This document shows positions 11,272 to 50,282 of a stretch of 50,562 nucleotides of DNA, piece after piece. The translations under genes were made by a program, and so were the position numbers. Numbering within the stretch: position 1 is the stretch's first letter; the number at the start of each line of letters is the position of its first letter. This DNA comes from Candidatus Moranbacteria bacterium CG_4_9_14_3_um_filter_44_28 (GTDB lineage Bacteria > Patescibacteriota > Minisyncoccia > Moranbacterales > UBA11712). The stretch lies in assembly GCA_002790655.1 (NCBI GenBank), contig PFVO01000042.1:1-50562 (forward strand), given 5' to 3'. The notes under the pieces were generated by a model. The model was not told the DNA's origin, made no database searches, and saw only the letters and a list, made by a program, of their open reading frames with translations.

Positions 11272-11854
11272 GAATCCGAGATTTTATTTCATTAAATATT
11301 TCTTCTTTGTTTTTCTCCCCGTCAATCGTAACCATATCCCAATCCTTTATTTTTACAGAAAATATCTTTTCTTTCTTAATTAAATATTCCAACCCCTGAT
11401 CCGGCTTTCGCTCGCGCTGCATTATTTTTTCTGGAGAAATTTTTAAATAAAAAGCGAAATCTGGTTTGGGAATGAATTTCTCTGCAAACAATCTTTTATC
11501 CTTCCCTGATAAATAATTTATATTTACCGCACTGTCATAAAAATAACGATCGGATATAATATAGTCGACTTTTAATTTCTTTGTCATCCACCTGAACCTA
11601 AAAATATCAATCAACAGCGCTAATTTCCGTAGTTGTATTTGCAGCCAATTAGCTTTCGTCACGCTTTTTTCACTTGGAGGGATCCGACCCCTCCGATTTT
11701 TTAGGGGTCGGATCCCTAAATTCCCAATCGAAAACTCCACCGCGTGGAAATAATAAAAAGATTTTTCCTCTGATTTTAGGTAATTTTTGAGTAATTCTAT
11801 TTGAGTTGATTTTCCCGAACCATCGAGGCCGGAGATTGATATTAATTTTGACAA
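11264..11854 (-). CDS. Thymidylate-kinase-like P-loop kinase
   Basis: ISISGLDGSGKSTQ P-loop, SDRYFYDS (DRY motif) and PDFAFYL lid region. Overlaps the flippase start by 8 nt. Contains a palindromic element at 11678-11717. Confidence 0.65.
   Translation of the reverse strand: MSKLISISGLDGSGKSTQIELLKNYLKSEEKSFYYFHAVEFSIGNLGIRPLKNRRGRIPPSEKSVTKANWLQIQLRKLALLIDIFRFRWMTKKLKVDYIISDRYFYDSAVNINYLSGKDKRLFAEKFIPKPDFAFYLKISPEKIMQRERKPDQGLEYLIKKEKIFSVKIKDWDMVTIDGEKNKEEIFNEIKSRIHV
11678..11717. repeat. Perfect 15-bp-arm palindrome (AGGGATCCGACCCCT-10 nt-AGGGGTCGGATCCCT) inside the kinase CDS
   Basis: Read directly from the sequence. The arms are exact reverse complements and form a GC-rich island in AT-rich coding sequence. 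It is translated in-frame as ..LGIRPLKNRRGRIPP.. Confidence 0.85.
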
Positions 11855-12204: not shown

Positions 12205-13767
12205 CTACGCCATCAGCACCGCCACGGGCTGCATCTTTGCCACAACTTTGATGATCTTATTTTCGGTCATTCCGGCAATAACTTCTTCCACATCCTTATA
12301 ATGCGAACTGTCTTGATCGATAATCTGACGTGATTTGGCGTTGAAAAGCTTTACTTTATTTTTCTTCATTTTTTCCATCAGTTCTTCGCGATTTTGAGGA
12401 ACATTTCCTTGCTTTTCTTTTGCTTTTCCGGTTCCGTGGCTTGCGGAAAAGAACGTTGATTCATTTTCATCCGTCCCGACACCAAAATAAAAGGGCGTAG
12501 CCATCGAAGAGGGGATAAAAATCGGTTCGCCGGTTTCAGCAAAAACTTCACTGCTCCTAGAGTTGAGCTCTAGGAGGTTTTTCATTCTTTCCGGCCCATT
12601 CGCCCGCGAAGCGCCGTTGCGATGCACAAAAACTTCTTCGCCAAAATGTTCTTCTTCCTGCACGTGAACGTGCGGCATATCGTAAACAAGCGGCAATTCC
12701 TCCTCGCGGCCGAAAACTTTTTTGACCGCTTTTCGAATATTGTTCGTGAGAACCGCGCGATTGGCAAAGCCGTAATTGGCGCTCACGCGATGGGCGGTGA
12801 GATACATTCGCCCCAATTCAGACTCGGAATCAATCGGGTAATATTCTTTTTTGTTTTTCCATGCCGGAATATCGCGGCGCAATTGTTCGTGAGCCGGATT
12901 GTTGCGTTTCAAGAATTGGCGCCGCCCAAGTTCCAGAATAATTTTCTGGCTTCGATGTTCTTTTTCCTTGGGCGTGTAAAAATAGGAAGCGTACTGCCCG
13001 AGCATTCCGGAGCCGGTATGCATCAAAAATAAATATTGGTCTTTTTTGATGCCAAATTTTTGGGCAATTTCTTCATTGATAATATTTGAAACTTTCATAA
13101 GATCGAGAAAATGATTTCCGGCCGCGCCCAAAATTCCGAGCCGCAGCTGGGCAATTCGCAAAAATGTCTTTGGAATAGAATTCAAAATTTCTTTCTCCGA
13201 GGGAATATTTCCGCCCAAGGCGGATCCCTGCCCGTCCAGCAGGCGGGCGCCTCTGGCGGAGAAAAAATTGCCGCCGTTGAAGGTATATTTGTCTTCGTCG
13301 GAATCAATCTTGAGCTTTTCTAAAATTGCCCTTGACCCGCGCCGGCAAACATCCATCACAGTGTCAAAATTCACACGCGTTCCGACATAAGTCGTCGTTG
13401 GAATAACTTTCACCAGCTCTTCAAATAATTTATCAATCTGTGTTTCATTTAAATCCGATGTACTAAATGGCGTTTTTATTAAGCGCATCCCGCAATTGGG
13501 AGCCGTATCCATTGTTTGAGGAAGAATATATTTTTTTGTCGCAATTGCTGTCCCAGTCGGATTTTTGCGCCCTTTTTTGGAATGGACATCGGAAAGCGCC
13601 GTGACGTGATGGAAAACATGCGGGTCACTGGCGATATCAACAAGCTCCTGAATCGTCGCTTCACCAGGCATGAGATTGTCAGAAACATGAAAAACAACAG
13701 GGACTTTCATTGATCCTGAGGGATTAATGATTTTTTTATGCTGACTAATTGATTGAATCTCTCGCAT
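12205..13767 (-). CDS. rtcB: RtcB-family RNA 3'-phosphate ligase
   Basis: 520 aa. LSDVHSKKG, APNCGMR, GAAGNHFLDL, LMHTGSGMLG, HRNGASRA and SASHGTGK correspond to the RtcB metal- and GTP-binding histidine/cysteine motifs. Confidence 0.85.
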   Translation of the reverse strand: MREIQSISQHKKIINPSGSMKVPVVFHVSDNLMPGEATIQELVDIASDPHVFHHVTALSDVHSKKGRKNPTGTAIATKKYILPQTMDTAPNCGMRLIKTPFSTSDLNETQIDKLFEELVKVIPTTTYVGTRVNFDTVMDVCRRGSRAILEKLKIDSDEDKYTFNGGNFFSARGARLLDGQGSALGGNIPSEKEILNSIPKTFLRIAQLRLGILGAAGNHFLDLMKVSNIINEEIAQKFGIKKDQYLFLMHTGSGMLGQYASYFYTPKEKEHRSQKIILELGRRQFLKRNNPAHEQLRRDIPAWKNKKEYYPIDSESELGRMYLTAHRVSANYGFANRAVLTNNIRKAVKKVFGREEELPLVYDMPHVHVQEEEHFGEEVFVHRNGASRANGPERMKNLLELNSRSSEVFAETGEPIFIPSSMATPFYFGVGTDENESTFFSASHGTGKAKEKQGNVPQNREELMEKMKKNKVKLFNAKSRQIIDQDSSHYKDVEEVIAGMTENKIIKVVAKMQPVAVLMA

Positions 13768-18217: not shown

Positions 18218-19164
18218 TTCTTATACTTCTCTTTCTTCAAAAAATACGTCTGATCTTCGGTGAGCTTGCGGTTCGTCTTGATCATATCGGCAATGAGCGC
18301 AAAAACGAAAAGCTGGATTCCGACCAGCAGCAAAACTCCGGCAAGCGCCAGCCAGGTCCGAAAAGGAGAAACTTTAAAATGGGAAAAATAATAAATCGAA
18401 AAAGCAATTCCTATGGAAAAAGCCATGGCAACAAGAACGACTCCGGGAACTCCAAAAAAAACAAGCGGCCGGGCGTCGCGGACCGTGCGCAGGATTATCA
18501 TAAAAGACTGAAATATGAATTTACTGACTGACTTTACGACTTTCGACTCGCGATCTTCAAAATAGGTCACCTCGACCGGAATCCACTTCACGATTAAGTT
18601 CTTTGAGATGGCATCAATGATTGTTTCCTGCGTGTAGGTGAAGCGATAGGCAAGGTTGAGCCGCAGCATCGTCTCGCGCGAGAGAGCCCGGAAACCGCAG
18701 GTGAGATCGTCAATCTTGTAGCGCAAAAATTTTCCGATGATGCCGGCCGCAAGGCGATTGAGCCAGTTTTTTATCCAAGGCATATTTTTTGCCGATTTAA
18801 TGCCGAAGCGGGAAGCCACGACCATATCCGCTTTTCCGGCGAGAATCAATTCTGTGAACTTCGGGATGTCGCTCGCCGGAAATTGGCCGTCGGCGTCAAT
18901 ATTCACGAAAGCATCCGCTTTGTGCTCGAGGGCCGATTCCACGGCCGTCCGGAAAGTCGCTCCAACTCCCTGGTTGCGAACGTGGCTTACGACAATGTCG
19001 GCTCCCGCTTCTTTTGAAACTTCGACTGTTTTGTCGCGCGAACCATCATCAACAACCTGAATTTTGACTTCGCTGAATCCATTGATATGCCGCGGGACTT
19101 TTTTTATCACTTCGCTAATGGTTTCTTCCTCGTTGTAAGCGGGAATATTGACAATTAGACGCAT
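18214..19164 (-). CDS. Glycosyltransferase family 2 with C-terminal TM helices (polyprenyl-phosphate sugar synthase-like, GtrB/DPM1-type)
   Basis: Start set at the ATG (MRLIVNIPAYNEEETI); the track start at 19179 is a TTG. VVDDGSRDKT and NIDADGQ (DxD) motifs, plus two C-terminal TM helices. Confidence 0.8.
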   Translation of the reverse strand: MRLIVNIPAYNEEETISEVIKKVPRHINGFSEVKIQVVDDGSRDKTVEVSKEAGADIVVSHVRNQGVGATFRTAVESALEHKADAFVNIDADGQFPASDIPKFTELILAGKADMVVASRFGIKSAKNMPWIKNWLNRLAAGIIGKFLRYKIDDLTCGFRALSRETMLRLNLAYRFTYTQETIIDAISKNLIVKWIPVEVTYFEDRESKVVKSVSKFIFQSFMIILRTVRDARPLVFFGVPGVVLVAMAFSIGIAFSIYYFSHFKVSPFRTWLALAGVLLLVGIQLFVFALIADMIKTNRKLTEDQTYFLKKEKYKK

Positions 19165-19321
19165 AATATAAAAATTCAAAATTTAAAAATCAAAATGCAA
19201 AATGACAATGCAAAATTCAAAATACCCCTATTTCTCATTGAATTTAATATAGCATATTAACCCAAAAAAATCCAGTTTATGGAATTGCTTTTTTGCTTTT
19301 TTTATTGTAAATTATAATTAT

Positions 19322-34735: not shown

Positions 34736-36058
34736 TTAATGGTAAACAATCATCTGGTCAACCACTACACCGCTTCCGTATAAAGCGCCCACGTAGGCTT
34801 TCGTCGAGCTCAAGAAAATATTAGCTCCCCAATAAGGATCGTGGACGACGTATTCCCCGTTTTTATCTTTTGAGTGAATGATCACGTAATGGCCCGCTCC
34901 CCTCTTCACAGCTTTCACAAAAACAATAACCGGATTTTTATTTTTCAACTCCTTGTCAACTGTATCCCAGTCAATATTTCCATGTCCCGTGGAAGACGCA
35001 AGCTCCACTCCTTTCCACGATTTCGGCCAAACGATAAGATCATGATAAAAAACCGGCTGCTGGGCAAGAACGCCGGGATTGATATCAACCCCGTGATAGC
35101 GAAAAACCATCGAGACCGCCGTCACCGCGCAACCATAGCTTTTCATAAGCGTGTTTGAAAAGCCAATATGCTGATCGCCCCAGCGCGGATCACGCTGGGA
35201 AAAATACCAGCTTGTTGAAGCCAGCCCCGATTTGGGTTTTTTAAGTGTTGCTTCCACTGCCGCGAGATCCGCGCTTTTTTCCTGACTCAATTCGGAAATA
35301 TCCCCAAGAAGTTCCTGTTTCTGCTCTTCCACCCGGGCCAGCATCTCCTGATACTTCTGCTCTTCCCCTCGCGTCTCGGTCAAAAGAGTTTCTTTGGATC
35401 CTTGCTCGTTGTCAAGGTAGTGCTTTTTCTCACCAATCTGACCCTGTTTTTCCTTGAGCTCATTGTTTTTGTCCTCGAGTTTTCTTTTGCTATCAGCCAA
35501 TTCATCCCGGGCGCTTATCACTGACGTCAAAACCTCGTCAACTTTAGCTCCCGTTTGAGCTACATAATCCGGCTGGCTCAAATAGCTGGAAAGGCTAACG
35601 TCGCGAAGCATTAATTCCATCAAAGAATCCCGATTATTTTCGTAATATGCCTGAAGCACGCTTCCCAGCAGTTCTTTTTTGTAATCAATTTCCTTTTCTT
35701 TTTCTCCGATTTGCTTGACCAAACTATCTATATCATTTGTTGTCGCGTCAATCTGCACTTGAAGCTTGGCGATATCATTTTCCAGGCTGGCAATTTGCCC
35801 CTCCATAAGTTCAATTTGATTTTGAAGCGTCTGGGCTTTGCTTTGCTTCATTTCAATCATCTGGCGATAGCTTTCCGCTTTTTTCTGAAGGTCCTCAATT
35901 TGCTCCTGTTTATTCTGAATTTGCTGCTGATTGCTGTTATCGGTCGTACTTTGAGCAATAACGCAGCTAAATAAAAAAGAAAAAATCAAAAAAGTTATCG
36001 CAAAGCGATTCCATATATTTGATATTTGATATTTGATATTTGATATTAACTCGAACAT
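34736..36058 (-). CDS. Secreted coiled-coil protein with C-terminal C39-like cysteine peptidase domain (putative cell-wall hydrolase)
   Basis: Signal/anchor FAITFLIFSFLFSCVIAQS. About 250 aa of heptad-rich Q/E/K coiled coil. C-terminus WYFSQRDPRW...SYGCAVTAVSMVF...GAGHYVIIHS...VHDP matches the Peptidase_C39_2 layout. Confidence 0.7.
   Translation of the reverse strand: MFELISNIKYQISNIWNRFAITFLIFSFLFSCVIAQSTTDNSNQQQIQNKQEQIEDLQKKAESYRQMIEMKQSKAQTLQNQIELMEGQIASLENDIAKLQVQIDATTNDIDSLVKQIGEKEKEIDYKKELLGSVLQAYYENNRDSLMELMLRDVSLSSYLSQPDYVAQTGAKVDEVLTSVISARDELADSKRKLEDKNNELKEKQGQIGEKKHYLDNEQGSKETLLTETRGEEQKYQEMLARVEEQKQELLGDISELSQEKSADLAAVEATLKKPKSGLASTSWYFSQRDPRWGDQHIGFSNTLMKSYGCAVTAVSMVFRYHGVDINPGVLAQQPVFYHDLIVWPKSWKGVELASSTGHGNIDWDTVDKELKNKNPVIVFVKAVKRGAGHYVIIHSKDKNGEYVVHDPYWGANIFLSSTKAYVGALYGSGVVVDQMIVYH
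36015..36047. repeat. Tandem heptanucleotide repeat (ATATTTG x4.7) within codons 4-15 of the hydrolase gene
   Basis: Read directly: ATATTTG at 36015, 36022, 36029 and 36036, plus a partial unit to 36047. Encodes ..ISNIKYQISNI.. on the minus strand. Confidence 0.9.
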
Positions 36059-36069
36059 TTTCAGAACAA

Positions 36070-37545
36070 TTATTTTATCTTTTCAATTGCTTTTTGTATT
36101 CTAAAAAGGGTTTCCCTCTTCCCTACCGCCCACGCTACCTCCCACGGCGACGGACTTTTTTCTTTCCCGGTGAGAGCCACCCGAAGCGGCCAGAGCAGCT
36201 CTCCCCTATTCTCCGGATCAGCCGCGGCTAGGAGTTTATTTTTTAAATTTTCTAATGTCCATTTACTCTCCTCGACAGAAGAAATAATATCCAAAGCTTT
36301 TTTGAGGGATATCGCTAAATTATTGTTATCCATATCTTTCCATTTTAAAAGATCCTTTTCGTATGTTGGTTTTTTAAGGTAAACTTCTTTATTTTCGGCA
36401 ATGTCTGACAATTTCTTTATTCTTTCTTTTTCGACGGCGACAATTTTTTCAATATACTCGTCTGACAATTTCTCCTCATCTTCTTCAAGATATGGCCGAC
36501 TTGGTTCAATAAGCTCCCAGTCTTCCTTTTTTCGGAGATAAATACTATTCATCCAATCCAATTTATCTCTGTCGAAGATTGCTCCGGATTTATTGAGTTT
36601 TGATATGTCAAATTCCTCGATCAATTCTTCCAAAGTAAAAAATTCCTGTTCCGTTTTCGGATTCCAGCCCAGAAGGGCGATGAAATTCACCACTGCTTCC
36701 GGCAGATATCCCTTTTTCATGAAATCCCCGACACTGACGTCTCCGTCGCGCTTGGAAAGTTTCTTTTTCGTGTTTTTATTGAGTATCACGCAGAGATGTC
36801 CGTACTGCGGCGGATTCCAGTCAAACGCCTGATAAAGAAGCAGGTGTTTTGGCGTGCTGGAAAGCCATTCCTCCCCTCGCAATACAAGGGTTGTTTTCAT
36901 TAAATGATCGTCCACGACGTGGGCCAAGTGATAAGTGGGATAGCCATCTGATTTCAATATTACAAAGTCGTCTAAATTCTTGTTGGTAAACTTGACTTTA
37001 CCGCGCACGACATCTTCAAATTCCGTCTCCCCTGTCTCCGGAACATCAAAACGAATGACACATTTTTCGCCGTTCGCGATTTTCTTCTCGGCTTCCTCCC
37101 GCGAAATTTCTTTGAGACAAAGTTTGTCGTAAGCCGGGGCGAGGCGAGCTTTTTCCTGAACGGCCCGCAAACTGTCGAGTCTTTCCGGAGTGCAGAAGCA
37201 ATAATAGGCTTTCTTTTTTTCCACTAGCTCATGGGCATATTTTTTATAAATTTCAAGTCTTTTTGATTGAATATACGGCTTATATTCCCCTTTTTCATAA
37301 ATATCTCCTTTTTCATTGACAAAAACTCCCTCGTTATGCTTGAGACCCGCCCAGTCAAGTGAATCTATCAGTTTTTTTATCGCGCCGGGAACAACCCGCT
37401 TTTGATCCGTATCTTCGATCCGCAAAAAATAATCTCCTTTATGTTTTTTCGCATAAAGAAAATTATAAAGAGCCGTTCGCAGTCCTCCAATATGCAAATA
37501 TCCGGTTGGGCTGGGCGCAAAACGCACCCGGACTTTTTTGTTCAT
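36070..37545 (-). CDS. gltX: Glutamyl-tRNA synthetase
   Basis: RFAPSPTGYLHIGG (HIGH) and KLSKRDG (KMSKS). 491 aa. Confidence 0.95.
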   Translation of the reverse strand: MNKKVRVRFAPSPTGYLHIGGLRTALYNFLYAKKHKGDYFLRIEDTDQKRVVPGAIKKLIDSLDWAGLKHNEGVFVNEKGDIYEKGEYKPYIQSKRLEIYKKYAHELVEKKKAYYCFCTPERLDSLRAVQEKARLAPAYDKLCLKEISREEAEKKIANGEKCVIRFDVPETGETEFEDVVRGKVKFTNKNLDDFVILKSDGYPTYHLAHVVDDHLMKTTLVLRGEEWLSSTPKHLLLYQAFDWNPPQYGHLCVILNKNTKKKLSKRDGDVSVGDFMKKGYLPEAVVNFIALLGWNPKTEQEFFTLEELIEEFDISKLNKSGAIFDRDKLDWMNSIYLRKKEDWELIEPSRPYLEEDEEKLSDEYIEKIVAVEKERIKKLSDIAENKEVYLKKPTYEKDLLKWKDMDNNNLAISLKKALDIISSVEESKWTLENLKNKLLAAADPENRGELLWPLRVALTGKEKSPSPWEVAWAVGKRETLFRIQKAIEKIK

Positions 37546-38795: not shown

Positions 38796-39494
38796 TTATT
38801 CTAACAGAAATGACTCCAGAATATAATAAACTCTCTTGCCCTTCTCAAATTTGCTTTCGTATAACTCGATCGAGTTCACCGAAACGGAAAATTTGAAATC
38901 TCTTTCCACTTCCGGCTCCGGTTTACCCCGCACCACAGATTTATCTTGCCGTCCGGCAGATAAGTGATCATAGCATTCTGTGGTGCGGGGTAAAATTTTT
39001 CTCCATTTTTCCTTTCTGATTCTTCCCAGAGTAATATGAGGTCTAAACTCTCTCTTTTCCCCTACGTGAAATCCAAGCGCTTTATCCAGCCGATATTTTA
39101 GATCAGACAATTCGTCGCTTTTCTCGCCCGTTGCCCAAATCATTTTCTTTATTTCGTCAGTCGGCCCCGGCTCTATTTTTACAAATTCCAGTTCGAAAGA
39201 CTGAAAATCCTGAACGGCGCTCTGAATAACCTCACAGACACCCAAAATATTTTCATCTGAAACGTAACCCAGAAAAATGAGCGTCAGGTGAAAATTTTCC
39301 CATCGAACCCATTTCACCCCGCACCACAGCCGGTTTTGATCTTTTATTCGCCTGGATAATCGATTTGAGCCATGCAAACGAAGCTGTGGTGCGGGGCAAG
39401 CGGGTAAATCCCCATATTCTTTTTCGACAAAACGAAACAGGCGCTTTTTGACGTCTTCCGGCAAACCAATTGCCACAAACAAGCGCTTTTGCAT
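38796..39494 (-). CDS. thpR: 2H-phosphoesterase (RNA 2',3'-cyclic phosphodiesterase ThpR / 2'-5' RNA ligase LigT) carrying two in-frame palindromic insertions
   Basis: Start at the ATG (MQKRLFVAIGLP); the track start is a TTG. Two HxTx motifs (HLTLIFLG, HITLGR) and a LigT-like C-terminus (FSVSVNSIELYES). About 49 aa longer than expected, accounted for by the elements at 38926-38990 and 39317-39396. Confidence 0.8.
   Translation of the reverse strand: MQKRLFVAIGLPEDVKKRLFRFVEKEYGDLPACPAPQLRLHGSNRLSRRIKDQNRLWCGVKWVRWENFHLTLIFLGYVSDENILGVCEVIQSAVQDFQSFELEFVKIEPGPTDEIKKMIWATGEKSDELSDLKYRLDKALGFHVGEKREFRPHITLGRIRKEKWRKILPRTTECYDHLSAGRQDKSVVRGKPEPEVERDFKFSVSVNSIELYESKFEKGKRVYYILESFLLE
38926..38990. 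repeat. Intragenic hairpin element copy A: CCCCGCACCACAG-39 nt-CTGTGGTGCGGGG
   Basis: Exact 13-bp inverted arms at 38926-38938 and 38978-38990; they extend to 17 bp with the TTTA/TAAA flanks. Translated as PRTTECYDHLSAGRQDKSVVRG. Confidence 0.9.
39317..39396. repeat. Intragenic hairpin element copy B: CCCCGCACCACAG-54 nt-CTGTGGTGCGGGG
   Basis: Exact 13-bp arms at 39317-39329 and 39384-39396. Translated in a different frame from copies A and C (..CPAPQLRLHGSNRLSRRIKDQNRLWCGV..). Confidence 0.9.
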
Positions 39495-39539
39495 AAGAAA
39501 ATTATAGCATTTTACCAACCAATTTTCAACCCGAATCTT

Positions 39540-41750
39540 CTACTCCACTTCCACGTCATAAATCGTCGCCACGTCTGATTTTTCTTCGGAACGGATTTCG
39601 GATCCATCGGCGGCGCGAATGTCGAAAATCACTTCGTTTTCTCCCGGCCGGATATCTTTTACTTTCGCTTCAATTGAAATTTTCGTATCAAGCTGGGTAA
39701 TATATTTTTTGTAAACTTCCTGCCCGTTAACAAGAACCTTAAGTCCGAGAGGCTTATAGAGTTTAATTTTAAAATTGAATTTCCCATCCTGCGGAATTTG
39801 CGCCATATTCACGATTTTCACACCCGCCCCGTTTTCCGCCCAGCGCTGAAGGCCGTTTTTTGACTTGCTCTTGCCGACCCAGTGTTTATTTGAATAATCC
39901 ATCGCCAAAAACATATGTTCCGGTATATCACTCTGGTCAATCTTGCAGGCATAAAGGTACTCATCCTTATATTCATCCGCACATTTTATGACATTTTGGA
40001 TATAAGCCCTGGCCGAATACAGCATGTTTAAATCACCTTTCGCTGGATTTCCCTTGAGTCCCTCTTTGTCTAATATGATATACCGGATATTATAATAATT
40101 TAGAATTTCGCTTGATATCTTATAATATGAATCCTTCATTATGTCGCGGTCATTGCCATTGCTCCCGTCCGGCAAATCATAAAGAATAGTCCGGATAATT
40201 GGAGTCCCTCGCTGAAAAGTATAATGATCCTTTATTACCCGGGCAAAATCGTAGCCATTTATTGTATTTTTGCGATGAATGCTCTTCCATACCAAATCAC
40301 GCGAAGCAAAATCATAATCCGTGCTCCCGGGGACTTCAAGCACGCTGTAATTTTCCTTGTCTTGACCTAATTTTTCATAAAAAGAAGAATGGAGAAGCAG
40401 ATTAGTCTTGAGAGGAATTGCGAGAAATTCAAGGATGATGATTATGCTAATTATAAAAAATACAATTTTTTGTCTGCGACCAAGCCCAAAAAGATCGATG
40501 CGTTTGCTTTTTGCAATATCACCAGTTGGCGATTCTTCTTTTATTCCTTCCTTTTTATTTCTTATTTTTGATATCACATACGTGCTTCCCCACGCCGCGA
40601 GAACGGAAAAGGCCAGCATAGAATATACAAAAAGCCGTCCGACAGTTCGGATATTATTAAAAAACGGAAGATAATTATAGGCCAGGAGATACGGCATTTT
40701 TATCGGCGGTTCGATTTGCCCCTTGAAATGAAGGTATGGTCCGAGAGACAAAATATAGAAGCCAAGGGCCACTGCCAGCCAAAACCACTTCTGGGAAATC
40801 CGGTTTTTGAAGAAAGCGAAAGTTGAAAGCAACAGCACAAAAAATCCGACGTAAACTGAAAATGTGCTGTCCGTTCTCCTTTCGAAAGTTTGCCGGACCC
40901 CCGAAAAAGCGTTCGGCCAAAAAGAATGAAAAGAAGGAGGGATGAAAATGCTCAAAGTGTCATTGGAGTATTTCACTGCCGCCTTAAATCCCGGATCGAG
41001 ATAATTGTCTCCAGAAGAGGCTATATTAAACAACGAACGGAACATAAAAAAGAAAAGGACTGATAAGACAAGAAGGCTGATAACCGCATAGAGCCAAAAC
41101 TTGCCTTTCAAAAAAATCTTCGGCTGGAAAATAAGTTTATAGACGAGAAAGAATAAAACGAATATTACGGTAAACGCCAGAAGCTGATGTTCGGAAAAAC
41201 CGATCAAAAGCAAAAACAATCCCGCCAGCGCGAAATTTTTGAACTTCAAGTCATCAAAAAATTTGAAAAGATAAAGCGCGAAAAACGGCAGCCACTCCTG
41301 ATGCATTGTGCCCACGTTGGTACTCAACGAATTGTGAAGATGAAACGGCGAAAAAGCGAAAATAATTCCGGCAAGGAGCGACGCTGATTTACTTTTTGTA
41401 AAGTAATAAGCCAGAAGATAGGCACCGAACCCGGAAAGGATAAACGACGCGAAAAAAAGCAGATTATAGCCGATTATTTTTCCAAAAATCAGCTCGAAAT
41501 AAGCATAGAGCGTGATGATGTTAAATTCCGACCGCCCCGCGAGTTCAATTGTTCCCTTGAAAATGCCAAGATCCTCGAGGACATTGACTCTTTCCCCCAC
41601 CGTTCCAATTACCTGCATTGTATCCGACCCGAAACTGGGAACGGAAGAAAAAAAATGCCAAAAAGCAGGCCAGGTGAGAATAAGCGTTAAGACGGCATAA
41701 AAAATAATTATTTGTAAAGATTCGTGTTTTTTCTTTTCAGATTTTTCCAT
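39540..41750 (-). CDS. Large polytopic membrane protein with C-terminal soluble domain (putative GT-C glycosyltransferase)
   Basis: 736 aa. About 12 TM helices in the first roughly 430 aa, then a roughly 300-aa soluble beta-rich C-terminus. Lies in the glycosylation operon. Confidence 0.5.
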   Translation of the reverse strand: MEKSEKKKHESLQIIIFYAVLTLILTWPAFWHFFSSVPSFGSDTMQVIGTVGERVNVLEDLGIFKGTIELAGRSEFNIITLYAYFELIFGKIIGYNLLFFASFILSGFGAYLLAYYFTKSKSASLLAGIIFAFSPFHLHNSLSTNVGTMHQEWLPFFALYLFKFFDDLKFKNFALAGLFLLLIGFSEHQLLAFTVIFVLFFLVYKLIFQPKIFLKGKFWLYAVISLLVLSVLFFFMFRSLFNIASSGDNYLDPGFKAAVKYSNDTLSIFIPPSFHSFWPNAFSGVRQTFERRTDSTFSVYVGFFVLLLSTFAFFKNRISQKWFWLAVALGFYILSLGPYLHFKGQIEPPIKMPYLLAYNYLPFFNNIRTVGRLFVYSMLAFSVLAAWGSTYVISKIRNKKEGIKEESPTGDIAKSKRIDLFGLGRRQKIVFFIISIIIILEFLAIPLKTNLLLHSSFYEKLGQDKENYSVLEVPGSTDYDFASRDLVWKSIHRKNTINGYDFARVIKDHYTFQRGTPIIRTILYDLPDGSNGNDRDIMKDSYYKISSEILNYYNIRYIILDKEGLKGNPAKGDLNMLYSARAYIQNVIKCADEYKDEYLYACKIDQSDIPEHMFLAMDYSNKHWVGKSKSKNGLQRWAENGAGVKIVNMAQIPQDGKFNFKIKLYKPLGLKVLVNGQEVYKKYITQLDTKISIEAKVKDIRPGENEVIFDIRAADGSEIRSEEKSDVATIYDVEVE

Positions 41751-41824
41751 GGTCCAAATAAAATATTAAATAGAAAATAGAAAATATTTTTGAATTTTTA
41801 CTATTTTCTTTTTGCTTTTTTATA

Positions 41825-42553
41825 TTATTTATATTTCCCTCTCCAATCATTCACTCTTATCCTCAACAAATCCCAGGTCATGTTGAGCGGATCACGGACC
41901 AGCCGGATATGGCTTTCCGGTGGATTTTGGAGAGAAATGGGAAGTTCCTTCATTTTATAACCGAATTTATTGGCCAAGAAAATCACCTCTGCGTCAAAAG
42001 CAAATCTTTTCACGGTGAGGCGCGAAAAAATTTTCATCGCCGCTTCCCGGCGAAAAACTTTGAAGCCGCACTGGGTATCCTTTATGTTCCATATGTTTAT
42101 GATTATTATCCGCAACAGCCGGAATATTTTTTCCATGATCCGCCGATGCCAGACCACGGGCCTCAAGATTTTCAGCCCCGGCACAAAACGCGAAGCGATT
42201 ACAAGATCAAAACCATTCTTCACCTCCTCCAAAAATCCATCGAGTTCTTCTATGGGAATTCCTAGATCGGCATCCAGAAACATTACCGTCTCAAAACGAC
42301 TCTTCAAAATGCCCCGCTGGACCGCTTTTCCTTTTCCCTCATTGGGCTGATTGTCAATTATCCTTATTGGAAACTCTTTCTGGAATCTCCTCAACTCTTC
42401 AAGGGTTTTGTCAGCGCTCCCGTCGTTGACCGCAATCAGCTCAAAATCATGAAAACGATTATTTAAGTAATCGAAAATGTTTTTAAGATTGAAGTAAATG
42501 GTTTTTTCCTCATTAAAACAAGGAACAACCACCGAAATCCGGCCGCTTTTCAT
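41825..42553 (-). CDS. Glycosyltransferase family 2 (dolichyl/polyprenyl-phosphate glycosyltransferase-like)
   Basis: ISVVVPCFNEEKTI, AVNDGSADKT, FLDADLG (DxD) and TQCGFKVFRR. Confidence 0.88.
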   Translation of the reverse strand: MKSGRISVVVPCFNEEKTIYFNLKNIFDYLNNRFHDFELIAVNDGSADKTLEELRRFQKEFPIRIIDNQPNEGKGKAVQRGILKSRFETVMFLDADLGIPIEELDGFLEEVKNGFDLVIASRFVPGLKILRPVVWHRRIMEKIFRLLRIIIINIWNIKDTQCGFKVFRREAAMKIFSRLTVKRFAFDAEVIFLANKFGYKMKELPISLQNPPESHIRLVRDPLNMTWDLLRIRVNDWRGKYK

Positions 42554-42597
42554 AGATATTTTTAAATTTCCTCAATTCTATTTTACTCTAATTCAAA

Positions 42598-44331
42598 TTA
42601 TTTTTCCAATGAGATCCCGAAGATATCTTTCCAAAATATTCTTTTCGACTTCTCTTCTTTTTCTCCTGCAAAAAAAGCACCCGCGTCTTCTTTTGGATTT
42701 ATTTTATACACAGTGAGCGCTCCAAACTTATTTTGCGATAAAATATCAAATTTTTCTTTGTTTTTCAGGCTGAAATTTTTGCTGCGGGTCAGACCAAAGG
42801 CATAAAAACATCCGTCCTGCCCGCCGTCATAATTTTTAATGGAAACCGCATTCAGATTTGCAAGTGCCAGCACGTATTTCGCGGGCGACTTGTATTCCGA
42901 GCTGGCGCTTATAAAAATAAGCGGCTTATCACAATCGCGTTTAATATATTCGGATGCTTTCTCGAGATGCCAAAGCACGATGCCATCCTGCGCTTTGAGA
43001 ATAATTGTTCGCTTAGGATAAACCACCCGCTTCTGGGAGGACCTTATTTCTTTAAACCAGAAATAGGTTCCAGTGAGATTCCCAAAAAACATTATCGAGA
43101 GCGCCAAAACAACGCAGATTTTCCAAAAAATACGTCGTTTCTCCCAGAAAAATACGGCAAGATAGCCGACAAAAATAAACGGCAGCGCGAGAAGCGGCAA
43201 AAAAAATCGCGGCCGGATTTGATAAGCAATCGGGATATAAGCCAAAAAATATACCGGAAACCAAAGAAGCGAAACAAGAATAAAATTTTTCCTGCCCGAA
43301 TTTTCCTCGCGGCGATAAAACTTGAAACCGAAAAACAGCGCCGGCAAAATCGCGCCCAGCCAGGAAACTATCGCCCCTTTAATGCCAGTCTTCCTGCTTA
43401 TCCAGCTCGTCAAAATCAAAAACCAATTTTGCCCGAAGTAGCGGATATCCCGCTTTACATTTTGCCAAAAACTGTGCGCTGACGGTTTTTCCTTAAGAGC
43501 CGATATGAACTCGCGGGTATTTTCTCCCTTGGAGATAACTTCATTCAAAAATACAGGGAGATAGAATAAAAGGACAACAAAAACAAATATCACCGCTTTT
43601 TTCCAGTCCAAGAATTTGCCGGCGTCTTTTCTGTTTTTCCAGAGAAAAATTGCCGTTATCACCGGCAGAGTCAGAAAGGAAAGAAAATGAAGCTGAGTCG
43701 AGACCGCGAAAGAAGCGCCTGCCAGAATCACCCAGCGCAAGCGGTATTTTATTTTCTTGCCCCGCACCACAGATTCCTCCGATGAAGCGGCAGTATTTTT
43801 ATTTAATAGACCTTGGCGACTTTCTGTGGTGCGGGGTGAATCGAATACGTTGAGAAGCGAATAAAAATAAAGAAGATTGAAAAAAGAGAGTGAATTCGGA
43901 TTCCAGGCAAAGCGGGAGTACTGAATTCCCAAAAAGCAAACGGAATAAAGTCCCGCGAGCACCAGCGACCAGTCGCGGGAAAAATATTTTTTGGCGAATA
44001 TGTAAAAAAGCGGAATGGAAAGAATTCCGAAAAGCAAATCCGGAAAGGCCATCACCGCCGGATGCGTGCTCTGGAAAATAGCCGCCGCCAGATATTGGAA
44101 ATAATAAAATACCGGCCCGACATTCAGCTCCGTTCCGCCTGCCTTTGGTCCGAGAAGCGGAAGCCAGCCTGGCCCCTTTTCAAAAGCGTCGCGGATAAGC
44201 ATTGCGTCCCGGGCCTGGTCCATTTTGAAAAACAGCCAGTCGGAAAAATGCCAGACGCGCAAAAAAACGGCCAGGCCCAGAACAAAGAAAAAAATTATTT
44301 CTTTGTAATTTTTTTTGAGGAAATCTTTCAT
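42598..44331 (-). CDS. ArnT/PMT-like GT-C glycosyltransferase (GT39/GT83-like) with an in-frame palindromic insertion
   Basis: 577 aa. N-terminal FFKMDQARD (DxD-like loop 1 motif), multiple TM helices and a C-terminal soluble domain. Element copy C lies at 43760-43836. Confidence 0.65.
   Translation of the reverse strand: MKDFLKKNYKEIIFFFVLGLAVFLRVWHFSDWLFFKMDQARDAMLIRDAFEKGPGWLPLLGPKAGGTELNVGPVFYYFQYLAAAIFQSTHPAVMAFPDLLFGILSIPLFYIFAKKYFSRDWSLVLAGLYSVCFLGIQYSRFAWNPNSLSFFNLLYFYSLLNVFDSPRTTESRQGLLNKNTAASSEESVVRGKKIKYRLRWVILAGASFAVSTQLHFLSFLTLPVITAIFLWKNRKDAGKFLDWKKAVIFVFVVLLFYLPVFLNEVISKGENTREFISALKEKPSAHSFWQNVKRDIRYFGQNWFLILTSWISRKTGIKGAIVSWLGAILPALFFGFKFYRREENSGRKNFILVSLLWFPVYFLAYIPIAYQIRPRFFLPLLALPFIFVGYLAVFFWEKRRIFWKICVVLALSIMFFGNLTGTYFWFKEIRSSQKRVVYPKRTIILKAQDGIVLWHLEKASEYIKRDCDKPLIFISASSEYKSPAKYVLALANLNAVSIKNYDGGQDGCFYAFGLTRSKNFSLKNKEKFDILSQNKFGALTVYKINPKEDAGAFFAGEKEEKSKRIFWKDIFGISLEK
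43760..43836. repeat. Intragenic hairpin element copy C: CCCCGCACCACAG-51 nt-CTGTGGTGCGGGG
   Basis: Exact 13-bp arms at 43760-43772 and 43824-43836. Translated as PRTTESRQGLLNKNTAASSEESVVRG. Confidence 0.9.
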
Positions 44332-47386: not shown

Positions 47387-47465
47387 AATAAATTTACGAA
47401 AGCGAAAAATAGAATTTCGAGAGTATCGCGTTCTGCCCGACTTTTGTCGGAGCAGGTTAGCCTAC

Positions 47466-48683
47466 TCAAGAAATGCTATTTTTCGCTTTCGCATCTTGCA
47501 ACCTCGACCGCAGGTAATTATAATATTCGCTGTTGTGGCTGTTTTTCGTTGTGTAGTCCCGCAAAGCTTTTTTTCGAGCTTCCTTGCCCATGCGCTCGCG
47601 CAAGTTTTTATCCAAAATAAGTTTTTCCAGCTTTTCAAGCCATTCTTTGATATCTCTGGCAAGAAAACCATCCTCGCCATCAAAAATTGCCTTACTGAAT
47701 GTCTGATTCCTCACAGCTACTGTCGGAACGCCCAAAATTCCAGCTTCGAAAAACTTGAGCTCTGATTTTGATTCGCAGAACGGATTGTCTTTTTCAAGCG
47801 GAATTATGTTTATATCAACACTCGATATGTTCTTAAAATGTTCTTCTCGAGAAACAAATGGCAGCTTCTCGATTTGATTTTGAAATTTATCGAATTTCTC
47901 GCTGATGTCGAGCGGACCGGCGAGAACCAATTTCACGTTCGGATATTTCTCGAGAATTAGAATCAGCGCGTCCTCGATCGTCGCGAAATTTTTGTCGTGC
48001 CCTTTTGTCCCGGCAAAATATCCTATTCTCAAGCCATTATCTTCTGTCAAAGGCCCAACCTTCCGCATTTTTTCTTTTAGAATTTTATCAGCTACTTCAA
48101 GATCTTTTAGAGACAGTTTGTTTTTTGACACAAAAACTCTTTTCCCATAACTTTCTAAAATTTTTGCAAGATATGTCGTGGTAGTTGTGCAAACTTTCAC
48201 GTACGGATCTTTTAATACTTCCGCCCCGACTCCTTTTTCGTATTGCCTTCGCTCCAGAGCATTCATCTTTTCAAGATGAAACATATACCTGAAATATTTC
48301 GGATTAAAAACCAGATCATCTGTTTCAAAAATAATTTCGCCTTTATTTTTTTTGATTTCCTCTATCAGCTTGGCAATCCCCGGGGTATATAAAATCCGAT
48401 GAAAAATGAAGATTTTGAATTTATCCGCGTACCTCGGGAGAAAAGGATTATCCTGAATCGTCACTGAACATTTGAAACCATGAAGTTCTAATTCTTCTCT
48501 TTGATTGTGCGCTCGATATCTTGCGCTGTCTCCAACCCCAACTGTCACAAACAAAATATCCCCCGGCCGAACCCGGCCGAACTGCGCCAGAAATGATTTC
48601 GCTACCCGCTTCCCGCCGCGAAACAGCCCTTCCTGTTTTAGAGCGCTAATCACTTTTCCGGTTTTTATAATCAGAGTTTTCAT
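47466..48683 (-). CDS. Glycosyltransferase (GT-B, group-1-like C-terminal half) with divergent N-terminal domain
   Basis: C-terminal ..IIPLEKDNPFCESKSELKFFEAGILGVPTVAVRN.. resembles the GT1/GT4 nucleotide-sugar-binding half. ATGA overlap with the upstream GT4. Confidence 0.6.
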   Translation of the reverse strand: MKTLIIKTGKVISALKQEGLFRGGKRVAKSFLAQFGRVRPGDILFVTVGVGDSARYRAHNQREELELHGFKCSVTIQDNPFLPRYADKFKIFIFHRILYTPGIAKLIEEIKKNKGEIIFETDDLVFNPKYFRYMFHLEKMNALERRQYEKGVGAEVLKDPYVKVCTTTTTYLAKILESYGKRVFVSKNKLSLKDLEVADKILKEKMRKVGPLTEDNGLRIGYFAGTKGHDKNFATIEDALILILEKYPNVKLVLAGPLDISEKFDKFQNQIEKLPFVSREEHFKNISSVDINIIPLEKDNPFCESKSELKFFEAGILGVPTVAVRNQTFSKAIFDGEDGFLARDIKEWLEKLEKLILDKNLRERMGKEARKKALRDYTTKNSHNSEYYNYLRSRLQDAKAKNSIS

Positions 48684-49910: not shown

Positions 49911-50282
49911 TTATTTCTTTTCTTTTAAAGTTATGATGCCCTTAGCAATAACATTTGATATTTCGACTAATTCTTGTAATAACCAGCTCAATTCTTTTTG
50001 ATCTCCCTTCCCAGTATCTCGCAAAAGAGCTAGCCATACTTTCGATTCATTCGCTGATTTCAGAGAATGAGTGAAAAAATTTATAAAATCCTTTTTTGAA
50101 CTTGCTGAATTTGCTTCGATATAATTAGCCAGAATACTTGTCCCGCTTCTTAACAATTGCTTTCCCATAACATCACATACGGAATTCTTGGGAAGTTTAT
50201 CTATAAATTTAATCAGTCTCAAAACAAAATTGTATAATCTTTTTTTAAATTCATTTTTAAATTTTGCCTTGTCATTTTCCAT
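49911..50282 (-). CDS. Four-helix-bundle protein (23S rRNA intervening-sequence protein / Avd-like family)
   Basis: 123 aa. GKQLLRSGTSILANYIEANSASSKKDFINFF.HSLKSANESKVWLALL matches the family signature (QL.RS.tSI.aN..EA....SkkDFi....i...E..Et.yWL.LL). Confidence 0.8.
   Translation of the reverse strand: MENDKAKFKNEFKKRLYNFVLRLIKFIDKLPKNSVCDVMGKQLLRSGTSILANYIEANSASSKKDFINFFTHSLKSANESKVWLALLRDTGKGDQKELSWLLQELVEISNVIAKGIITLKEKK

Follow-up and report, generated by a model that had tools for sequence, protein, structure and literature searches.

In-frame palindromic insertions of probable MITE type in genes of Patescibacteria

The Rickettsia palindromic elements (RPE) are repeats resembling MITEs (miniature transposable elements with inverted repeats) that have recurrently fused in frame with genes (Ogata et al. 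2000, summarised in PMC10969869). Here we describe comparable insertions, A, B and C, in two genes of a 50,562-nucleotide contig (PFVO01000042.1; the window, meaning this whole stretch) of Candidatus Moranbacteria bacterium CG_4_9_14_3_um_filter_44_28. As with RPE, short palindromic mobile DNA sits in unrelated housekeeping genes with the frame kept, adds extra peptide segments and is retained at orthologous positions in related species, all in the reduced genomes of host-dependent bacteria. The present elements differ in belonging to Patescibacteria, in their size (65-92 nt vs about 100-150 bp for RPE), in the clean 4-bp duplication documented for them and in that only their 13-bp ends are conserved, the peptide varying by site and frame, whereas RPEs are described with a conserved peptide. 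They appear to work like RPE, a likeness by description, and are not filed here as members of that group, given that the peptides differ between sites and frames.

With the prokaryotic MITEs Correia/CREE, ERIC, BOX/RUP and Nezha the elements share inverted ends, a duplication, a non-coding nature, hairpin potential and a dispersed, polymorphic occurrence; here, however, there are very few copies, their interiors have diverged almost completely and old copies keep perfect ends by compensatory evolution. REPIN-RAYT systems are alike in flanking a less conserved spacer with two conserved units in inverted orientation and in their long vertical persistence, but the arms described here are not palindromic REPs, lack a GTAG-like head, are largely intragenic and come with 4-bp duplications. 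Hairpin insertions in coding sequence that are bypassed during translation include the byp elements of Magnusiomyces mitochondria and the hop of T4 gene 60. The byps are thought to derive from mobile GC-rich palindromes; they contain stops or frameshifts and must be skipped. The resemblance to both lies in the short hairpin inserted into coding sequence, whereas every mid-gene copy found here is open, a multiple of three nucleotides (3n) in net length and apparently read through.

We take the elements to be a new MITE family of Patescibacteria, palindromic and inserted in frame, whose long-term stem conservation is unusual. A, B and C are likely to be copies of this family that are old, were inherited vertically and survive in genes only where the frame was kept. 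This would bring an RPE-like phenomenon, in which palindromic mobile DNA adds translated loops to housekeeping proteins, to the Candidate Phyla Radiation (CPR); in small CPR genomes, orthologues often differ in length without explanation, which makes annotation and structure prediction harder.

Three perfect hairpins in two host genes

The window holds exactly six occurrences of the 13-mer CCCCGCACCACAG; they form three inverted pairs, and the six arms of 13 nt are all identical. Shuffled sequences gave an expectation of 0.23 matches, with 0/100 shuffles reaching six, and allowing up to two mismatches added no further match in the window. The elements and their host genes are as follows.

38796..39494, minus strand: host gene of A and B, ThpR/LigT (RNA 2',3'-cyclic phosphodiesterase), 232 aa from MQKR
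38796-39518, minus strand: open reading frame (ORF) of ThpR/LigT
38926..38990, minus strand: element A, 65 nt, arms 38926-38938 and 38978-38990, core of 39 nt; reads PRTTECYDHLSAGRQDKSVVRG; within ThpR, 3' of the second HxT motif
39317..39396, minus strand: element B, 80 nt, 13-nt arms and core of 54 nt; reads CPAPQ...LWCG, in a frame other than that of A and C; ahead of the first HxT motif of ThpR
42598..44331, minus strand: host gene of C, GT39/PMT_2-like glycosyltransferase, 577 aa
43760..43836, minus strand: element C, 77 nt, 13-nt arms and core of 51 nt; reads PRTTESRQGLLNKNTAASSEESVVRG; located in a loop of the membrane glycosyltransferase (GT39-like)

All three elements lie within 5 kb, in one same-strand gene cluster. 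The exact search reproduced the three hairpins, with their coordinates and 13/13 arms, as given in a preliminary description of this DNA, which had also called the cores of 39, 54 and 51 nt unrelated; indeed, the similarity of the A, B and C cores to each other and to the cores of copies elsewhere is non-significant (p 0.36-0.57). Each element folds into a strong hairpin (z -4.2 to -8.7). Shuffled cores were free of stops in 42% (A), 30% (B) and 31% (C) of trials, and the chance that three random cores would all be in frame and stop-free is roughly 0.0015. Flipping the core in silico brings a stop into A and B and leaves C open, again as previously described. The probability that the hairpins reflect chance similarity, or an assembly or adapter artefact, is negligible: the sole point in its favour is that the window comes from a metagenomic assembly, while the excess of 13-mer matches speaks against chance and the same insertions recur at orthologous positions, with ordinary divergence, in independent JGI, ENA, NCBI and Logan assemblies, which rule out such an origin.

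ThpR, whose homologues match Pfam PF02834 and PF13563, has 232 aa in the window vs 181 aa in most orthologues, and the GT39 protein has 577 aa vs about 545-552 aa in orthologues with an empty site. Both host ORFs run open across the elements (PRTTE..SVVRG for A and C, in the same frame; PAPQ..LWCG for B, in the other), and the ORF translations bear out the two reading frames of the arms reported in the preliminary description. Among orthologues, core indels are multiples of three and stops have never been acquired; because the cores have stayed stop-free with only such length changes over deep divergence, we infer that the in-frame elements are translated as part of the host protein. For ThpR, AlphaFold gave a model of low confidence (mean pLDDT 52), in which the insert segments are the least confident and are predicted as coil. 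Surviving in-gene copies would be read as surface loops of 23-28 residues that are probably disordered.

Copies elsewhere, target duplication and reading frame

The preliminary description had considered the case that the 13-mer occurs at these three sites only; exact-arm copies are present at other loci. Exact-arm hairpins were found at two intergenic loci of one Portnoybacteria metagenome-assembled genome (MAG) and at one locus of an Akkermansiaceae MAG (63% GC). Two sediment JGI contigs also carry exact arms, L007 in an intergenic position and L012 in frame within a B12/radical-SAM gene, and the cores of these two copies are 75% identical to each other despite their unrelated loci. The Akkermansiaceae copy (L002:3940-4014) has a 49-nt core and is not flanked by TTYA; its neighbours are the genes of a methylpurine glycosylase and a Whirly-domain protein. 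Its occurrence in a phylum remote from Patescibacteria suggests that the element family, or its transposase, has spread horizontally. Relaxed scans and a covariance model, together with a generic search for CCCC...GGGG hairpins in the fetched loci, added further copies, which are listed below with the corresponding empty sites of the window (a slash marks the insertion point).

L013:4984-5062: copy D, arms CCCCGCACCAAAT/ATTTGGTGCGGGG, 53-nt core, net +84 nt, in a peptidase C39-like gene
35990..36007 of the window, minus strand: empty D site, RFA/ITF, in the peptidase C39-like gene
L021:3926-3999: copy in a GT39 paralogue
L023:3175-3253, minus strand: epimerase copy, arms CCCCCCACCACCC/GGGTGGTGCGGGG, TTCA duplication, net 83 nt, at the 5' end of the gene
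L021:6590-6669, L025:12987-13078 and L012:10641-10749: copies of sister arm type CCCCGTTAGAAAT(T)
L012:5727-5880: copy of sister arm type CCCCGCACCTTTCC
41244..41261 of the window, minus strand: empty F site, FFD/DLK, in a 736-aa membrane protein (ORF 39540-41750)

L013 is a close relative of the window, with ThpR genes 92% identical in nucleotides, yet only L013 has copy D. At the F site, a hairpin of the sister type CCCCGTTAGAAAT sits in frame in both the L021 and the L025 orthologue. The two sister arm types share the outer CCCCG with the CCCCGCACCACAG type and differ in the inner arm. Altogether the family occupies at least 12 independent sites in at least five lineages; its elements measure 65-154 nt, encode no protein of their own and have ends that are perfect over 13-15 bp, the outer CCCCG being common to all three arm types. 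The 13-mer, together with an outer CCCCG...CGGGG rule, offers a simple flag for such insertions in Patescibacteria gene models. Two scans of viral contigs yielded no copies, and a chimeric query of translated cores from six subfamilies, run against 5.8 billion proteins, returned only four known host proteins; from this protein census we conclude that there has been no high-copy burst.

Two arm-like matches (L016:3325-3337 and L012:4099-4111) were rejected as elements, being host-encoded VVRG protein motifs. The DNA of such host motifs (GltX DVVRGK and B12-rSAM VVRGEGE; also window 37001-37013) matches the arm at 10-11/13 positions, and arm-like sequence thus arises naturally in neighbouring genes. 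Two weak matches to the covariance model were also noted: at L012:10236-10279, a 16-bp hairpin with a 4-nt loop and an arm-like outer stem, CCCGTACCA, and at L003:2023-2134, on a Portnoybacteria contig, a diverged copy with 9-bp outer stems CCCCGCGCC/GGTGCGGGG around a 92-nt core.

Direct repeats of 4 bp flank eight copies and comprise five sequences (TTTA four times, TTCA, TCAA, CGGA and CGAG), the duplications of the sister-type copies being clean (TCAA, CGGA and CGAG). Together with the perfect terminal inverted repeats, these duplications run counter to the earlier view that the element is not a typical MITE: it is a small non-coding sequence with terminal inverted repeats and a fixed-length duplication, found at unrelated loci and polymorphic for presence or absence. 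At the epimerase site, the empty orthologue in L026 reads GGA TTC ATT, encoding the uninterrupted host motif GAGF/IGSH, and L023 reads GGG TTCA[E]TTCA TC, with E standing for the element.

In protein and codon alignments against empty orthologues, the net gain is the element plus 4 nt in each of the three window copies: 69 nt for A (38922-38990; 65 + 4, 23 codons), 84 nt for B (39317-39400; 80 + 4, 28 codons) and 81 nt for C (43760-43840; 77 + 4, 27 codons). The extra nucleotides are these.

38922..38925, minus strand: four extra nt of insertion A, TAAA in gene orientation
39397..39400, minus strand: four extra nt of insertion B, CAAG on the plus strand
43837..43840, minus strand: four extra nt of insertion C, TTCA in gene orientation

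At the A site the sequence is ATT CTG CCG in empty alleles and ATT TTA[E]TAAA CCG in filled ones, and the TAAA is probably a diverged second copy of a TTTA target duplication. The B site reads TTG CCC/GTG AGG TGG when empty and TTA CCC G CTTG[E]TG AAA TGG when filled. For C, the empty P0099 has TTC GAC GAG AGC and the filled P0077 TTT GAT TCA[E]C AAG AGC, while P0074, with a degenerate C, keeps CGAG on the other side. Old copies have one flank formed by a conserved host codon and another that varies among orthologues (TAAA, TGAA, CAGG or CAAA for A; TCAA or CAGG for F), which is consistent with decay of the duplicate copy lying inside the new loop. All five C-type copies have TTCA...CAAG, with GATTCA and CAAG invariant, and B likewise has TTCA...CAAG.

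Of the flank rules compared (duplication of 2 bp or of 4 bp, inverted duplication and an IS200-like terminal tetranucleotide), a 4-bp direct duplication fitted eight copies, and the flanks of A, B, C and D fitted only as diverged duplications. The 2-bp model was rejected, as empty sites show a net gain of the element plus 4 nt. The flanks TTTA/TAAA, TTCA/CAAG and CTTG/TGAA are as first described, but the 2-nt repeats noted within them are not the target duplication, and the paradox drawn from them, that a 2-bp duplication would make the insertions non-3n, disappears: 26 nt of arms, 4 nt of duplication and a 3n core add up to a 3n insertion. As a separate observation, the flank beside the GGGG end is CAAG in B (39397-39400) and in all five C-type copies (43756-43759 of the window; L021, L023, L024), and CAGG in A of P0003 (L015:1785-1788) and F of L025 (13079-13082); this CAAG/CAGG flank recurs across different frames and genes, and simple target duplication does not account for it.

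Net length is 3n, without stops, at 7/7 independent mid-gene sites (A, B, C, the C paralogue, the L012 rSAM copy, the F site and D). For the six intergenic copies the net lengths are 87, 78, 81, 79, 113 and 158, only three of them 3n, and the 83-nt insertion at the 5' end of the epimerase gene introduced a stop and broke the ORF, so that the annotated gene now begins inside the element. Taken together, these data indicate that the 3n rule is survivorship, a filter by selection on insertions and not a property of the element, contrary to the intrinsic 3n property hinted at in the preliminary description. The L023 epimerase copy falls in the Rossmann motif of an NAD-dependent epimerase (cf. L026:2370-3302). 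The old start, MKILVTGGAGF, is left upstream and hits a stop, and the new start within the element reads MKKKSQKILVTGGAGFIGSH; the right arm encodes GGAG, KILVT is encoded a second time at the end of the core by a 31-nt, diverged duplicate of the 5' end of the host gene, and changes in the left arm parallel those in the right.

Age, stem conservation and patchy presence

Insertion A is common to P0002, P0003 and P0004, whose ThpR orthologues are 72-92% identical in nucleotides, and is degenerate in P0007; insertion B is found only in P0001 and P0002. Insertion C is common to P0069, P0070 and P0077, whose GT39 genes are 64-70% identical to that of the window; it is degenerate in P0074, and a paralogue copy is present in L021. 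Between intact orthologous copies, the host genes differ at 24-36% of all positions and at 39-55% of third positions, and the cores at 25-62%, vs only 0-3/26 nt in the arms (P down to 4e-5); comparisons with the degenerate P0007 copy give 7-9 arm differences. The A and C insertions are therefore old and probably vertically inherited; their cores have accumulated changes at roughly the pace of the host gene, and their arms 5-10 times more slowly. The combination of invariant arms and unrelated cores needs no special mechanism, since the copies predate the divergence of the lineages and the cores are nearly neutral.

Most arm changes are double and restore pairing. In P0003, G13>A is accompanied by C1'>T; in P0077, C6>T goes with G>A, both changes being synonymous (CGC>CGT, GTG>GTA); and in the L021 paralogue, G5>T is matched by C>A. 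Other compensatory pairs occur in D (two), in the L023 epimerase copy (two) and in the F-type pair (one). Across an alignment of 19 copies, ten stem pairs have changed on both sides, a value reached by 0/500 shuffles and far above that of slid registers. As the P0077 pair is synonymous on both sides, the constraint lies on nucleic acid and not on protein, in line with the nucleotide-level conservation of the arms first proposed from their two reading frames. Arm-to-arm gene conversion was rejected as a sufficient explanation, for it keeps pairing without lowering the substitution rate; purifying selection on the stem is thus required.

The presence of the elements is patchy, and the filled and empty alleles found at orthologous sites provide the polymorphism among relatives that the preliminary description had proposed to look for. 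The D, C orthologue/paralogue and F sites are each filled or empty among relatives, the closest pairs being 89-92% identical in nucleotides. In neighbour-joining (NJ) trees the filled alleles are never sisters. For GT39, 5 of 38 alleles are filled, and one gain implies 16-23 losses in NJ trees, the alternative being five gains; for ThpR 4-13 losses are implied. The cores group as their hosts do: that of the window pairs with P0069, and P0070 pairs with P0077 (these two have a 3-nt deletion and an ATTACT string in common), and since they also diverge as the hosts do, an old insertion followed by repeated loss is favoured over recent transfer. The scattered filled alleles would thus imply repeated clean loss. 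L021 has both of its GT39 paralogues filled and L022, where the orthologues are 89% identical in nucleotides, has both empty; one L022 junction looks precise apart from two substitutions, and the other has three different codons. Sites known in filled, decayed and empty states amount to a natural experiment on the tolerance of hairpins in ORFs, on selection for stems and on their removal.

Mode of movement and alternative readings

If A, B and C are remnants of a MITE family, as we think likely, the element would be a non-coding pair of perfect 13-bp terminal inverted repeats around a short core, at home in Patescibacteria genomes among relatives of Moranbacteria and Portnoybacteria. It would be moved by a DDE-type transposase encoded elsewhere, and each insertion would duplicate 4 bp of target (usually TTTA or TTCA for the CCCCGCACCACAG arm type), giving a gain of 26 nt plus the core plus 4 nt. 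Insertion itself would follow no frame rule, and in essential or useful genes only 3n, stop-free copies would escape purifying selection; this is the sense in which the data support an option of the preliminary description, that of RPE-like mobile hairpins filtered for in-frame sites. The arms would be held by selection for an intact stem; single changes are rare and most fixed changes compensatory, and the elements would be lost cleanly again in many lineages. The stem may be needed at the DNA or the RNA level, our best guess being a binding or processing site for a cognate enzyme, or an mRNA structure.

Several results weigh against this account. No transposase, recombinase or HUH protein turned up in Pfam scans of some 50 proteins encoded by the window, L012 and L002, or in the gene tables of L021-L026; the scanned proteins are housekeeping or cell-envelope enzymes, including RtcB and a PD-(D/E)XK nuclease, and the mobilisers suggested earlier, a RAYT/TnpA-Y1 or an invertase, were likewise not found among them. 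No autonomous element with the same ends is present in the window or the fetched loci. Exact-arm hairpins were detected in only 2/185,579 species representatives, copy number is low and the specific cores occur in no other protein among the 5.8 billion searched. A, B and C themselves are without matching 4-bp flanks, and the CAAG shared by the right flanks of B and C is not obviously explained by decay of a duplication. The C site also lacks flanking direct repeats, which leaves no evident route of clean loss. Finally, a dead MITE would not be expected to keep its inverted repeats through more than 30% host divergence, and because the repeats have stayed intact for so long, something beyond simple parasitism acts on the stems. 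A literature search for the 13-mer returned an unrelated primer only.

A possible alternative, overlapping with the MITE reading but less probable, is that the hairpins have been exapted, their stems now serving the host as mRNA structure or protein-bound DNA, for instance as stability or processing sites in a long glycosylation operon, as translational pausing sites or as a DNA hairpin bound by a host protein. The slow evolution of the arms, the compensatory changes with their purely synonymous pair and the location of the window copies within 5 kb of same-strand genes agree with such a role, as does a bimodal pattern in which arms are near-perfect in most lineages and decayed in P0007 and P0074, as if a trans factor had been lost. 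However, the host genes have no common function, copies are also found between genes and in a distant phylum, empty alleles predominate, so that many lineages do without the element, there is no strand-consistent G.U pattern, and Rfam gave no family match at either gathering or permissive thresholds. More speculatively, the stems may be the substrate of a hairpin-specific maintenance and excision system of Patescibacteria acting within coding sequences, with a REPIN-RAYT-like or mRNA-structure function. If so, this would account for pairing that is kept by compensatory, even synonymous, changes beyond 30% host divergence, for stem decay in two lineages and for clean, concerted loss from close relatives, as in L022 with both GT39 paralogues empty. 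It is improbable that the family is a single-strand hairpin element mobilised by an HUH tyrosine transposase, as IS200/IS605 PATEs or REPIN-RAYT elements are. Such an element would insert 3' of a tetranucleotide, bring its own 3' tetranucleotide and excise seamlessly. Seamless excision could account for the abundance of clean empty alleles, and the net gain of element plus 4 nt, in which those 4 nt are not always a copy of the target, agrees with this reading; the whole element is also one hairpin, and at five independent sites a TTYA flank set on the left is followed by a core beginning with AA, a hint of polarity. Yet the five different 4-nt direct repeats resemble true target duplications, which this transposase family does not make, and the arms are terminal and perfectly inverted instead of forming subterminal hairpins, neither of which fits a PATE. 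CCCCGCACCACAG is not self-complementary and has no GTAG-type REP head, most copies are intragenic, and no Y1_Tnp match or RAYT gene was found among the roughly 50 proteins scanned.

The two other options of the preliminary description fare worse. Excision and rejoining of the elements from RNA, or hopping by the ribosome, is very improbable, even though RtcB (12205-13767) and ThpR are encoded nearby and the stems are very stable. Neither stops nor non-3n indels have appeared over 25-60% core divergence in 4-5 lineages per site, the stem is perfect and hence offers no bulge-helix-bulge motif, no ribozyme or other Rfam match was obtained, and the take-off and landing codons of A, B and C are mismatched. 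Still less credible is that the elements are very short invertible segments whose flipping would switch the protein off (A, B) or alter a loop (C). The perfect inverted repeats and the stops that flipping brings into A and B, but not C, speak for such a switch; but orientation is identical in every orthologue (4-5 per site) and independent assembly, the window holds no invertase and the scanned proteins no recombinase, and the target duplications and the presence/absence pattern indicate insertion. To our knowledge, cores of 39-54 bp are too short for the synapses of known invertases.

A few other features were noted. Between two glycosyltransferase genes of the window, at 47397-47491, lies an unrelated long hairpin, with 29-nt arms that are 90% complementary and a 37-nt spacer, possibly a further element of palindromic kind. 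A perfect 15-bp palindrome (AGGGATCCGACCCCT / AGGGGTCGGATCCCT, 10-nt loop) occupies 11678-11717 in a thymidylate kinase ORF whose Pfam match is split in two. RtcB (minus strand) has 520 aa, of which 477 residues align to a Pfam model of 426 positions, leaving about 50 extra residues that could be decayed insertions. In L023, a syntenic relative, an 89-aa LAGLIDADG fragment (18980-19249) adjoins the peptidase C39 gene, and the end of the window (49911-50282, minus strand) encodes a 23S rRNA intervening-sequence protein (PF05635).

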